From: a phage
Length of the DNA: 64,000 bases
Sequence record: PX645697.1
Direction: 5' to 3' (one strand)
The notes under the pieces were generated by a model that was not told the origin of the DNA, ran no database searches, and worked only from the letters and a program-made list of their open reading frames with translations. This document shows positions 31,172-53,642 of the stretch, piece after piece. The stretch's first letter is position 1. Each line of letters opens with the position of its first letter. The position numbers and the translations under genes were made by a program.

Positions 31172-31855
31172 TTAACTCTCCAAAGTTTTCTTCAGAGCTG
31201 CCCACGAGATTGGGTAGATCTTAGCCATCTCTTCGTCTACGGATTTAGCAAACACTCGAACTTCATATTGAGCGTGAGATGAGAGTCGCTGACGACACAG
31301 CTCAAACCAGCCATACAAAGAACCAGTCCACACCCACTCAGTGATCATCCCCTGAGGAAGAACAAATCGAGCTTGCTCTGGTGCAATAAATTCAATCAAC
31401 TTGTCATATGCTGCTAGAGAATCTTCATATGCATCGTTAATCAGCATTAATGCTTCATCTCGCTCTCCGTCGATGAGTTGAATCCCTGAACCTGCATGGA
31501 GGTCCGCAGGTCTCGCAAAAATCTCTTTAGGGATGAAGACTTCAACTGCTCCATCTTTATACCGCCGGGACATTTCGTTCCACGAGAATCCAACCTGATG
31601 CTTGCCCAACTGTCTCGCAATTGCGATAGGTGCTTTGCATCGGAAACTGACTTGTGGGTGTCGGAATGGAGTAACATGCTTCTCTCTTGCGAGGAAATTG
31701 ATGAGACGTTCATCACGTTCATTTAAATCACCTTCACGGGTTACACCAAAGGAAACTCGAGCTGCGTTTACTACAGTTTTATCCGAGCCTAAAAACTCTA
31801 CCAGTTCTGCTTTAAGCTGATCATTCATTACTTTTTCTCTCCATCCATGAAGCAA
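31172..31855 (-). CDS. thyX: flavin-dependent thymidylate synthase (ThyX)
   Basis: ThyX-type motif ARVSFG...FRHPQVSF...QRLSSHAQYEVR. Confidence 0.7.
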   Translation of the reverse strand: MLHGWREKVMNDQLKAELVEFLGSDKTVVNAARVSFGVTREGDLNERDERLINFLAREKHVTPFRHPQVSFRCKAPIAIARQLGKHQVGFSWNEMSRRYKDGAVEVFIPKEIFARPADLHAGSGIQLIDGERDEALMLINDAYEDSLAAYDKLIEFIAPEQARFVLPQGMITEWVWTGSLYGWFELCRQRLSSHAQYEVRVFAKSVDEEMAKIYPISWAALKKTLES

Positions 31856-32273
31856 GTTTTCTAACTTCCTCTATCGTTATATCACTTTTTAACCTATTTA
31901 CTCTTCTTGACAAAAAGGTCACATTCCCTTGAACGTACCCTTTGTCTGGAATAAATCTGTCAAGCTCAGCTAAGTCATCAGAACCTTTTTCACCATCTAT
32001 CTTTATAGGCGTATCTAATACCGGACAGAATCCAGTCCAAATAGACTCTAGATACTCAGGAGTTAAATCAAAAGGTACGTTATCCCTTTTTGCTTTTATT
32101 TTAGTTCTGACATTCTTTAATTTAAAAGGTTGTGTCCTTTTATATTTTAGATATCTAGCTCTTTGACTTTCGTTGGCGCAAGAATAACAATAAGGCCGTA
32201 ACCTACCAGACCTATCATTACGCACAGGAAATTGATCTATGTCCAAATCCTTTTCACAGGAATTACAGATCAT
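31821..32273 (-). CDS. zinc-finger protein, possibly degenerate HNH-like nuclease
   Basis: N-terminal CNSC...CYSC; C-terminal IPDKGYVQGNVTFLSRRVNRLK. Confidence 0.3.
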   Translation of the reverse strand: MICNSCEKDLDIDQFPVRNDRSGRLRPYCYSCANESQRARYLKYKRTQPFKLKNVRTKIKAKRDNVPFDLTPEYLESIWTGFCPVLDTPIKIDGEKGSDDLAELDRFIPDKGYVQGNVTFLSRRVNRLKSDITIEEVRKLASWMERKSNE

Positions 32274-32338: not shown

Positions 32339-32539
32339 TTAATATTCTTTTACACAATAAACCACTAAGGTTCCTTGATCTGTTAATATTGACTTATGTA
32401 AGCTGACATTACTATAAAACTTTGGAGCTATCTTAAGGGCTTTCTTAAAACGACGAGCTTCTTTACGAGTAGCAAAGTGCTCTGTTACAGGAACTTTGTC
32501 GTTGTGTAGATAGTAAACTACTGTCCAATATTTTTTCAT
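32339..32539 (-). CDS. small protein, member of KEARR-KK paralog family
   Basis: MKKYW...TRKEARRFKK shared with four ORFs at 34.4-35.5 kb. Confidence 0.4.
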   Translation of the reverse strand: MKKYWTVVYYLHNDKVPVTEHFATRKEARRFKKALKIAPKFYSNVSLHKSILTDQGTLVVYCVKEY

Positions 32540-33004: not shown

Positions 33005-33190
33005 TTATAGCATACAAAGAATAATAACAAGAGGTAGTGTTATAGCAAAATGTACCAGAACAACACTACCTAGCTTGATAGCTTTAACATCCTCTTCTGC
33101 TGGGTTTTCTTTAATTGCTAAATTTCGAGCTTTATATATAACAGTACCAACTATTAACGACCACACGGCCCACACAATCAGTGAAATCAT
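33005..33190 (-). CDS. small two-TM membrane protein
   Basis: Track ORF; MISLIVWAVWSLIVGTVIY... paralogous to the adjacent untracked ORF. Confidence 0.45.
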   Translation of the reverse strand: MISLIVWAVWSLIVGTVIYKARNLAIKENPAEEDVKAIKLGSVVLVHFAITLPLVIILCML

Positions 33191-33199
33191 ATCAAATCC

Positions 33200-33379
33200 T
33201 TATGCAGTCAGGAGGTGAAGCAGGAATGGGATAACAACAGCTACGATAACCATGATAGTTGATGCTGTTTGAATCTCACCTTTCTTATCAGGGGTTTCTT
33301 CAATAAGCTTACCAGAAGCCCAATAAATACCACCACCAATAAAGATAGCCCAAATACCCCATACGATTGCTGATAACAT
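33200..33379 (-). CDS. small two-TM membrane protein, 59 aa (not in track), paralog of 33005..33190
   Basis: Hand translation MLSAIVWGIWAIFIGGGIYWASGKLIEETPDKKGEIQTASTIMVIVAVVIPFLLHLLTA. Confidence 0.45.
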   Translation of the reverse strand: MLSAIVWGIWAIFIGGGIYWASGKLIEETPDKKGEIQTASTIMVIVAVVIPFLLHLLTA

Positions 33380-33440
33380 ATATCTATATCCTTATAAATA
33401 AGTTCGCCCCACCTCGGGTTAGGAGACAGGGCGGAGGTTT

Positions 33441-34040
33441 TTAGTAAGACACATCACCACTTGAGTGGGACATGTTGCTCTTGACAAAGTAGCAATACTT
33501 GCCAAGACCTTCATTAATTTCTTGAAGCATACTCTGATCAACTGGATAAGTGACTAAATCACCATCAAACTCATCCATCTTCTCAATAATACACAACAAG
33601 GTCATGCACATATCAGAGAGCATTCCATCCATGTCTAGATCAGCATTACCCTCTGAGAACCAAGCATGAGAGAGGTAGTTAGCTGCTGTAGCGTCCACTT
33701 TAACACAGTGGTAACGCATACGTTCAGCAATACGATCTCCTACCTGTCGTGCGTAATCTTCCAGCTCGTCAAACATACCATGAACACCCTGAAATCCTGC
33801 ACCAGAGACGTTCCAGTGGTAGTTTTTAGCTTTAATATGCAAGAGTTCCATGTTAGCTTGTAAGCAGCTTAGGATGTGTTCTAGGTTGTTTCCGCTAATC
33901 ATGCCCTGCATAGTTTCAAGGCGAGAGATTGAAAGCTCAGATCGGTCTAACATGTTATATTCTGCACGACCGATTTCAGGTAAATCAAAGACATTCTTAT
34001 GCATTTGGGTTATCTCCATCAAGTTCAACTGAATTAGCAA
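33441..34040 (-). CDS. Dps-like / ferritin-like protein
   Basis: KNYHWNVSGAGFQGVHGMFDE...DRIAERMRY matches the Dps ferroxidase-region pattern HWN..G..F..VH.M.D....AER. Confidence 0.5.
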   Translation of the reverse strand: MLIQLNLMEITQMHKNVFDLPEIGRAEYNMLDRSELSISRLETMQGMISGNNLEHILSCLQANMELLHIKAKNYHWNVSGAGFQGVHGMFDELEDYARQVGDRIAERMRYHCVKVDATAANYLSHAWFSEGNADLDMDGMLSDMCMTLLCIIEKMDEFDGDLVTYPVDQSMLQEINEGLGKYCYFVKSNMSHSSGDVSY

Positions 34041-34326
34041 CGTTACGTTCGATGTTTGCCATCACTTGCTGCGTTATGACAATGCAGTTCTGTGGGTCAA
34101 CTGATTTAGAACGCCCCATTTCAGGGTCATACACTTTAACTCGCTTAGCAGTTGAACCTGTAACCTGAAGAACCTTCAACAGATATCCCTGATTACCAAT
34201 AGACCATGCAACAACATCACGATTCTTGATGAATCGACCAAGCATATCACGATGATAGAACTGCTGCATAACCTTTGATTTATTAATCTCTTCGGCTGGC
34301 GGAGCCACTTTACTCAAATCTAACAT
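33997..34326 (-). CDS. hypothetical protein
   Basis: Track ORF; AAATGTATA variant motif 35 nt upstream. Confidence 0.3.
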   Translation of the reverse strand: MLDLSKVAPPAEEINKSKVMQQFYHRDMLGRFIKNRDVVAWSIGNQGYLLKVLQVTGSTAKRVKVYDPEMGRSKSVDPQNCIVITQQVMANIERNVANSVELDGDNPNA

Positions 34327-34364
34327 TTCACTCTCTCCTGTTTAACACAATATTCTTATACTGT

Positions 34365-34373
34365 ATATACATT
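34365..34373 (-). promoter_or_regulatory. AAATGTATA variant of the recurrent motif
   Basis: One mismatch to TAATGTATA, 35-40 nt upstream of ATG 34326. Confidence 0.3.
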
Positions 34374-34398
34374 TGAGAGTGATCATATCTACTACCAA

Positions 34399-34608
34399 TC
34401 AGTAGTAAATTACTTTAGACATAAAAGAACCAGTGTTAGGGTCTTCATACCAGCGATGTATGTCAGCGCTTTTTACTATTGTGCCCAGAGTCTTCAACTG
34501 TTTCTTAGCAATACGAGCCTCTTTGCGAGTGTCAAACAATTTGATGCTATCTTTTCTCATATGTTGCTCAAGATCCCAAACAACATGAATAGCCCACATC
34601 TTTTTCAT
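34399..34608 (-). CDS. small protein, KEARR-KK paralog family
   Basis: MKKMW...TRKEARIAKK...VIYY. Confidence 0.45.
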   Translation of the reverse strand: MKKMWAIHVVWDLEQHMRKDSIKLFDTRKEARIAKKQLKTLGTIVKSADIHRWYEDPNTGSFMSKVIYY

Positions 34609-34823
34609 TAGTAATGTACCTTTCCGCTGATATAAATACGGCCTGAGGTATACTCATAGCCCTTGAGAATCTTAATAGAGATAAGATATCCAGTGTGTAA
34701 TTCACTGAACGATTTCTTAAGCCTACGTGCATCTTCTCGTGTTTTCTGGTAGGCCATGGTCACCCCCCCACTTGTCCACTCTGTCTTAACTAACCAAATT
34801 CTTTTCATAAGACCTGCCCTCAT
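34608..34823 (-). CDS. small protein, KEARR-KK paralog family
   Basis: ...TREDARRLKK...KVHY. Confidence 0.45.
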   Translation of the reverse strand: MRAGLMKRIWLVKTEWTSGGVTMAYQKTREDARRLKKSFSELHTGYLISIKILKGYEYTSGRIYISGKVHY

Positions 34824-35035
34824 TAGTAGTACACCTTGCTTCCAGCCATGAACGCCCCTGTCGAGCTTATCATGGCTTTGCTGATAGTAACTTTCTTACA
34901 CCGTAAACATACCTTCCAGTTCTTTTTACAGATTCGAGCTTCTTGTCGAGTGTTACAAAAAATAGCCGAAGATATTTCTTGGGTGTTGTTATCATAAACA
35001 CGAACACACCACTTTTTCATTGTTCCAAACTCCAC
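34823..35035 (-). CDS. small protein, KEARR-KK paralog family
   Basis: ...TRQEARICKK...KVYY. Confidence 0.45.
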   Translation of the reverse strand: MEFGTMKKWCVRVYDNNTQEISSAIFCNTRQEARICKKNWKVCLRCKKVTISKAMISSTGAFMAGSKVYY

Positions 35036-35241: not shown

Positions 35242-35490
35242 TCAGTAATATATCTTTTCATTGATAACCAAAGTGTCGTAATTCTCTGTCTGAGAGTGGA
35301 CCGCTTTGTGAATAGTAGCTACTACATCAACAGCATCTTTAAAGCGTCGATAATGGTTTATGGTTACTTTTTTGAGACGTCTAGCCTCCTCTCTTGAGGG
35401 AAGCTGAGTTTTTAGAACAGTGATTTTACCTGTTGAAATCTTGGTAATCACAACTTTCAGTGCCCAACAATCCAGAGCAGCCTTTTTCAT
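35242..35490 (-). CDS. small protein, KEARR-KK paralog family
   Basis: ...SREEARRLKK...KIYY. Confidence 0.45.
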   Translation of the reverse strand: MKKAALDCWALKVVITKISTGKITVLKTQLPSREEARRLKKVTINHYRRFKDAVDVVATIHKAVHSQTENYDTLVINEKIYY

Positions 35491-53543: not shown

Positions 53544-53642
53544 CTCTCATTCAATTTGGCGCACCGTGGAGGATTCTAACCTCCAACCAATTTCTTAGAA
53601 GGAAACTGCTCTATACAATTGAGCTAACGGCGCTGGATTTGT

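Follow-up and report, generated by a model that had tools for sequence, protein, structure and literature searches.

A divergent Dps-family mini-ferritin in the replication block of a phiEco32-like Escherichia coli phage

Results

Organization of the locus

The window, meaning the whole 64,000-nucleotide stretch of phage sequence record PX645697.1, shows 92-94% DNA identity to phiEco32-like E. coli phages (Kuravirus, Gordonclarkvirinae), and its source is a phiEco32-like (Kuravirus) podophage of E. coli, from a group described as lytic. Positions 33441..34040 on the minus strand hold an open reading frame of 199 codons, the translation of which includes KNYHWNVSGAGFQGVHGMFDE and DRIAERMRY. An earlier note, made from the sequence alone, had read this frame as a Dps-like ferritin-fold protein of a lytic phage. 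The TTG at 34040 is merely its mechanical start, the first possible start after a stop. An ATG at 34004 (MHKNVFDLP...) follows a GGAG located 9 nt before it, and there is an 8-nt overlap between this start and the end of the preceding gene. Considering that the GGAG spacing, the equivalent N-termini of homologues (MH[KN]N) and the start annotated in phiEco32, IMEP8 and KBNP1711 all agree on it, this ATG is likely to be the true start, giving a product of 187 aa with a computed mass of 21.3 kDa and pI of 4.7; the segment between TTG and ATG probably lies outside the translated protein. Coordinates of the features are provided in Table 1.

Table 1. Features of the Dps locus in the window
Feature	Position	Strand	Remarks
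Dps-family (mini-ferritin) CDS, 187 aa + stop	33441..34004	-	phiEco32 gp67 orthologue; Pfam, PHROG, PDB, AlphaFold2/Foldseek
5' part of the ORF, TTG 34040 to ATG 34004	34005..34040	-	within the 3' end of the gp68-like gene
N-terminal extension, ~40 residues, net charge -2	33885..34004	-	Kuravirus-type clade only
Ferroxidase-centre codons H63, W64, H75, D79, D90, E94	33723..33818	-	helices A and B; alignment with E. coli Dps
gp68-like gene, 109 aa, PHROG 10984	33997..34326	-	8-nt overlap with Dps start
gp68-Dps promoter region	34364..34409	-	sigma-70-like and phage-sigma motif
Hairpin directly after the Dps stop	33405..33433	-	11 pairs, 7 GC

The upstream gene encodes a gp68-like protein, in which a Pfam scan recognised no family. 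Its AlphaFold2 model, of moderate confidence (pLDDT 66.6), predicts a five-stranded SH3-like barrel with flanking helices; a Foldseek search with this model returned nothing below an E-value of 1e-3, and nothing beyond the modelled SH3-like barrel could be assigned. Homologues with 31-39% identity conserve the pattern HRDxLxR...W...P-x-N-x-[IV]-V-I. In Kuravirus, Privateer and LAh_6 the gp68 homologue lies directly upstream of Dps with an overlapping or abutting stop and start, while in phage 7-11 it is found 1.3 kb from Dps, beside thioredoxin (homologue coordinates: L003 3639-3923, L004 2397-2663 and L005 3109-3462). Judging from this arrangement, the gp68-like gene and Dps appear to be a translationally coupled, promoter-proximal pair with Dps second, and the gp68-like protein may be a partner of Dps.

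A sigma-70-like promoter, TTTACT-16-TATGAT, is present at 34409..34382 (-) and is followed at 34374..34364 by AAATGTATATA, a match to tAATGTATAtA, the phage-sigma motif of phiEco32. For phage SU10, a sigma-70 promoter has been reported upstream of CDS68 in the same position, the phage-sigma motif has been given and CDS68-25 have been classed as middle genes (PMC4281155). Based on the promoter motifs upstream and this classification, a middle transcription unit begins with the gp68-like gene, followed by Dps. The unit continues downstream with two small membrane-protein genes and genes for thioredoxin, an HNH endonuclease, ThyX, PhoH and DNA polymerase, while dCTP deaminase, exonuclease and primase/helicase genes lie upstream. 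The hairpin following the Dps stop (-15.9 kcal/mol, z -1.7) shows no clear gain over shuffled sequences and is a weak candidate for a terminator or attenuator.

Several other elements were seen in the window. Exact AATGTATA sites number seven against about 2.9 expected (7338, 12572 and 22474 on the plus strand; 22401, 28603, 34366 and 56241 on the minus strand); the positions agree with the phage-sigma promoters described for phiEco32/SU10, of which three are late and three middle, and 56241 is an extra site. Around Dps, five small paralogous ORFs of 66-82 aa (32339-32539, 34399-34608, 34608-34823, 34823-35035 and 35242-35490, all on the minus strand) start with MKK..., share a 'TR[KQ]EAR..KK' motif and end in -YY, -HY or -EY; the one that was scanned belongs to PHROG 4939 (unknown function). 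Directly downstream of Dps are two tandem paralogous hydrophobic ORFs (33200-33379 and 33005-33190, minus strand; 59 and 61 aa; PHROG 9296), which are probably membrane-spanning; phiEco32 and IMEP8 have one copy, and KBNP1711 also has two small genes there. An endonuclease VII/HNH-like ORF (31821-32273, minus strand, 150 aa, PHROG 3322/1035) located between thioredoxin and ThyX has no counterpart on the map of phiEco32; it is probably a mobile homing endonuclease. A single tRNA gene, tRNA-Arg(TCT), occurs at 53557-53633 (-).

Assignment of fold and family

The sole match in the Pfam scan was Ferritin-like (PF00210), with a score of 30.9 bits (gathering score, 24.5) and an alignment covering just residues 67-119 of the ORF. 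In the PHROGs search the protein was assigned to family 3636 (3e-54). A phmmer search against all PDB sequences returned 59 matches, all of them Dps-family proteins except one marginal hit (E 0.69); the best reached 3.4e-9, and M. smegmatis Dps2, B. subtilis MrgA and B. anthracis Dlp-2 were detected at about 1e-8 to 3e-9. A profile built from 16 phage homologues improved the best PDB match to 5.7e-15, covering the whole domain.

The AlphaFold2 model, a single chain built on a 70-sequence alignment, has a mean pLDDT of 90.2 and predicts helices at residues 41-65, 71-98, 107-112 (short), 125-150 and 154-176. The order of these helices corresponds to the A-B-BC-C-D topology of Dps, that is, a four-helix bundle with a short BC helix. 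When the model was searched against the PDB with Foldseek, each of the best 50 matches was a Dps protein, with TM(target) up to 0.93 and, for most of these 50, an rmsd of 1.2-1.6 Å over about 140 residues. In the alignment of phage homologues the BC helix and helix-end residues are strongly conserved, which is compatible with assembly. The Ferritin-like score above its cut-off, the PDB matches and the confidently predicted bundle thus bear out the ferritin-fold, Dps-like assignment of the earlier note, which had proposed an HMM search and a structure prediction as checks.

Membership in the family does not make the protein an orthologue of a known cellular Dps. It scores far below the cut-offs of NCBIfam equivalogs of cellular Dps (34.4 against 114 bits for NF006975; 31 against 170 for NF041388, DpsA) and, for this reason, by sequence it is best described as a divergent family member rather than an orthologue of any characterised cellular Dps. 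E. coli Dps itself was detected by phmmer only at an E-value of about 0.15, and by the phage-family profile at 2e-6. Recent capture of the gene from the host was rejected on the phmmer comparison of this 0.15 with the 3e-9 obtained for Gram-positive and actinobacterial Dps. In a library of 1.84 billion representative proteins just 13 match below 1e-10. By these sequence comparisons the gene product belongs to a phage clade that has diverged within the Dps family, and is no recent copy of a host gene.

Conservation of the ferroxidase centre

In Dps proteins the ferroxidase centre lies between subunits of a hollow dodecamer with 23 symmetry. In a BLASTP comparison, residues 55-95 of the phage protein align without gaps with residues 43-83 of E. 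coli Dps, placing H63, W64, H75, D79, D90 and E94 at E. coli H51, W52, H63, D67, D78 and E82, and a MAFFT alignment including L. innocua Dps and four distant phage homologues gave the same register. The resemblance to the Dps ferroxidase region that the earlier note had recognised by eye around DRIAERMRY is borne out, with the His/His/Asp/Glu ligands falling exactly on E. coli H51/H63/D78/E82. Of the two grounds that the note had named for abandoning the assignment, lack of a predicted ferritin-like fold and lack of these ligands, neither applies: the fold is predicted with high confidence and the ligands align.

All six residues are invariant in the 16 phage homologues, down to 48% identity, and across a wider set of 70 sequences, in which identity falls to about 22%, H63, H75, D90 and E94 do not vary. 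In comparisons with phiEco32, IMEP8 and KBNP1711 (dS being saturated for KBNP1711), the Nei-Gojobori method gave a dN/dS of 0.04-0.09 for the whole gene and 0.02-0.05 for the core; values for the N-terminal 42 codons are higher, up to 0.38, indicating more relaxed selection than in the core. These substitution patterns point to strong purifying selection that keeps the iron site. That the protein belongs to the Dps family and has an intact iron site is considered almost certain.

Departures from cellular Dps proteins

Compared with the cellular structures of M. smegmatis Dps2 (2z90/4m35), B. anthracis Dlp-2 (1jig), B. subtilis MrgA (2chp) and L. innocua Dps (1qgh), the phage protein has 20-26% identity, the common bundle with its BC helix and an identical set and spacing of ferroxidase ligands, but adds a 40-residue N-terminal extension. 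This extension includes a predicted extra helix at residues 19-37 (AlphaFold2, pLDDT ~70) and carries the conserved motif S-[IM]-x-R-L-[ED]-x-M.

A flexible tail rich in Lys and Arg provides the DNA contact in E. coli-type Dps, although it is not a defining trait of all Dps proteins. E. coli Dps has the same family membership and ferroxidase residues as the phage protein, whereas its Lys-rich DNA-binding N-terminal tail is absent from the phage protein and its pI is 5.7 as against 4.7. The sequence and a count of charges revealed no basic (Lys/Arg-rich) tail at either terminus of the window protein; the net charge is -2 for the first 40 residues, -1 for the C-terminal tail and -15 overall. As there is no basic tail and the net charge is -15, tail-mediated DNA binding is unsupported, and direct DNA binding by the Kuravirus protein seems unlikely from its sequence. 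phiEco32 gp67 has been annotated as 'DNA-binding protein; member of the Dps family' since its GenBank deposition in 2008; for the Kuravirus protein the 'DNA-binding protein' label is probably wrong and looks like a transferred family name.

The acidic, ferritin-like three-fold pore by which iron enters L. innocua Dps is lined by D121, D126 and D130. In the phage clade the corresponding stretch reads P-[VI]-[DT]-[QK]-[SN]-x-L (P-V-D-Q-S-M-L in the phage protein, D-V-T-N-D-M-L in cellular Dps), and the equivalents of L. innocua D126 and D130 are P154 and S158; the alignment to Dlp-2 has the same register. A near-invariant D156 lies between these two residues, and variable D147 and D149 are nearby. 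Since two of the three pore aspartates are replaced by Pro154 and Ser158, iron uptake may differ from that of Listeria Dps. The phage protein is also unusually rich in Met (14) and Cys (5) and has a conserved DMCMTL motif. A conserved Met/Cys-rich stretch, GMLSDMCMTLLC, was noted at the start of helix C (residues 128-140; 33585-33623, minus strand); E. coli Dps has zero Cys as compared with the five in the phage protein.

Distribution among phages

Orthologues in phiEco32 (gp67, ABY52868), SU10 (CDS67), NJ01, 172-1 and IMEP8 share 95-98% amino acid identity over all 187 residues, and the few substitutions fall mainly in the N-terminal extension. In phiEco32-type loci the gene occupies the same site, flanked by the gp68-like gene on one side and the small membrane protein/thioredoxin genes on the other, with the same promoter layout; the window has two tandem small membrane-protein genes after Dps, as against one in phiEco32. 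Using tblastn, the Dps gene was found in 149 phage records, spanning all Kuravirus-like phages as well as Salmonella 7-11, Proteus Privateer, Cronobacter, Aeromonas LAh_6-like, Streptomyces, Synechococcus and Listeria phages. Relatives are encoded on at least 358 IMG/VR contigs, and phage-borne Dps is therefore common.

The gene is conserved in all podophages of the C3 morphotype. It lies within a replication and nucleotide-metabolism block in Kuravirus, Nieuwekanaalvirus, Grimontviridae and Lahexavirus phages, and in the C3 podophages this same block includes the gp68-like gene. Dps proteins of other phages (Grimontviridae Privateer/7-11, Lahexavirus LAh_6, Coruscant, Lactobacillus phages and 'Gratiaviridae') have the same fold and ligands at 28-44% identity; they do not have the long Kuravirus-type extension, and those of Privateer and 7-11 carry short Arg/Lys-rich N-terminal tails. 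Directly after Dps in Privateer, 7-11 and LAh_6 there is a stand-alone ATP-cone protein of about 90-100 aa (L003 4398-4694, L004 4411-4710 and L005 3929-4201), annotated as an NrdD fragment, hypothetical or NrdR-like, with no counterpart in the window.

ThyX is a flavin-dependent thymidylate synthase with a side reaction that produces H2O2, and in Kuravirus, 7-11, LAh_6 and Streptomyces phage Coruscant its gene is less than 3.5 kb away from Dps. On examination of 80 IMG/VR Dps loci by tblastn, ThyX was found in one, which is 7-11-like; a general functional link between Dps and ThyX was accordingly rejected, and the linkage is regarded as lineage-specific synteny.

Among sequences of uncultured phages, a Dps fold is fused to a portal-like N-terminal part in one IMG/VR ORF (L051 4236-5453, plus strand), and the BFVD entries A0A6J7XDU5, A0A6J7WPK9 and A0A6J7WIS1, which have a Dps fold, are named 'prohead protease'. 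As judged from sequence and names, there are hints of a capsid-internal Dps in some uncultured-phage lineages. A Pfam scan of ten multidomain Dps proteins from the representative library detected no second domain, and a PHROGs search with six of the ten detected no head-morphogenesis family.

Many GenBank records of Kuravirus phages, including those of IMEP8, 172-1, ES17, EcoN5, IME267, PAS59, XT73 and others, call the Dps ORF 'integrase'. The 'integrase' CDS of IMEP8 (UCR91985; L002 1501-2064), for example, is the Dps ORF. Identity as a tyrosine or serine integrase was rejected: no integrase or recombinase family matched, the only Pfam match being Ferritin-like. With the sole 'integrase' in its relatives being a mislabelled Dps ORF and the Kuravirus group being described as lytic, the earlier description of the phage as lytic is upheld.

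Discussion

This protein has been reported and annotated before. For the SU10 orthologue, mass spectrometry identified 6 peptides covering 35.8% of the protein, more peptides than for any other product of the middle genes, and gp68 was detected as well (PMC4281155). Because the sample had only been precipitated with PEG and also contained DNA polymerase, thioredoxin and sigma factor (PMC4281155), these data indicate expression and not association with the virion. CDS67 (DPS domain) and CDS68 were noted to be among the few middle genes common to all five C3 podophages then known (PMC4281155). The Privateer homologue was among ten proteins identified by mass spectrometry in CsCl-purified virions, in a paper that calls its function unverified (PMC7881722); the supplements give no spectral counts for it. 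DPS genes have also been described in 'Gratiaviridae' and 36 other gut phage genomes by Benler et al. (2021), who proposed that they shield anaerobic hosts from oxidative stress and cited Lactobacillus phages as earlier cases (PMC8008677). The literature searched contained no biochemical or genetic test of any phage or Kuravirus Dps.

Dps proteins oxidise Fe(II) preferentially with H2O2. We favour, as a reasonably probable reading, a functional mini-ferritin that oxidises and stores Fe(II) and so limits Fenton damage while the phage replicates its DNA. The roles suggested in the earlier note, protection from oxidative damage and sequestration of iron, are plausible. In this reading a hollow dodecameric shell would be built, in which pairs of subunits would form the ferroxidase sites, H63 and H75 coming from one and D90 and E94 from the other. 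These sites would oxidise Fe(II), preferentially with H2O2, and Fe(III) would be deposited inside the shell, such that both Fenton reagents would be removed while phage DNA is replicated, with less hydroxyl-radical damage as the outcome. Dps would be made from the first middle promoter together with replication and nucleotide enzymes (dCTP deaminase, thioredoxin, ThyX and DNA polymerase), under phage middle promoters and not under RpoS/OxyR, which control E. coli Dps. As phiEco32-type phages redirect the host RNA polymerase, induction of the host Dps by OxyR/RpoS is presumably blocked by the phage take-over of transcription, if the biology of phiEco32 is a guide, and a copy of the phage's own would then be useful. 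We infer, rather than observe, the dodecamer, the ferroxidase activity and the benefit to the phage.

It is also conceivable, if unlikely, that the protein chiefly binds and condenses DNA, coating replicating or newly injected phage genomes against nucleases, restriction enzymes and radicals, with iron chemistry being secondary. Some cellular Dps proteins are established to do so, databases give the gene the name 'DNA-binding protein', the Grimontviridae homologues have the Arg/Lys-rich tails mentioned above, and the modelled barrel of the co-transcribed gp68-like partner resembles SH3, Tudor and PWWP domains, a fold that often binds nucleic acids, which is weakly suggestive. However, the window protein is strongly acidic, with pI 4.7, a net charge of -15, an extension of -2 and an essentially uncharged C-terminal tail; the Lys-rich tail of E. 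coli Dps is absent, the label appears to come from the family name and the invariant ferroxidase centre speaks for selection on iron chemistry. That the ORF is a decaying, non-functional captured host gene, or a mis-called frame such as an 'integrase', is extremely improbable: many records do label it 'integrase' or 'hypothetical protein', but strong purifying selection, invariant catalytic residues and detection by mass spectrometry oppose this, and Pfam recognises Ferritin-like only and no integrase family.

Co-purification of the Privateer homologue with CsCl-banded virions (PMC7881722) is not predicted by a purely cytoplasmic role, and speaks for a protein located in or on the prolate capsid, where it would guard the packaged genome from iron and peroxide or be delivered with the DNA. 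Fusions of the Dps fold to head-morphogenesis-like proteins elsewhere (the BFVD 'prohead protease' entries and the portal-like IMG/VR ORF) and conservation of the gene in all C3-morphotype podophages are in keeping with such a location. Against it, Dps is a middle gene in the replication block, outside the late structural operon, no capsid-targeting signal was identified in it, and the SU10 detection in a PEG-only sample speaks for expression only; a stable iron-loaded shell of 250 kDa could, moreover, merely co-band with the phage in CsCl. Taken together, a virion-associated protein is judged quite unlikely. A related and very doubtful proposal combines Dps of the C3 podophages with the coupled SH3-like gp68 in a protective shell associated with the virion or DNA; such a shell would travel with the phage genome or be placed on it instead of scavenging iron freely in the cytoplasm, and would parallel encapsulin/ferritin systems and the fusions of Dps to head proteins in uncultured phages.

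That the C3 podophages share a Dps gene, and that it belongs to this family, can already be found in GenBank and in two papers (SU10 and Privateer). Minor refinements added here concern the partner gene gp68 with its coupled translation, the changed pore motif, the acidic nature of the extension and the wrong 'integrase' label. The mislabel has a practical side, since it could wrongly flag strictly lytic Kuravirus phages that are candidates for therapy as temperate.
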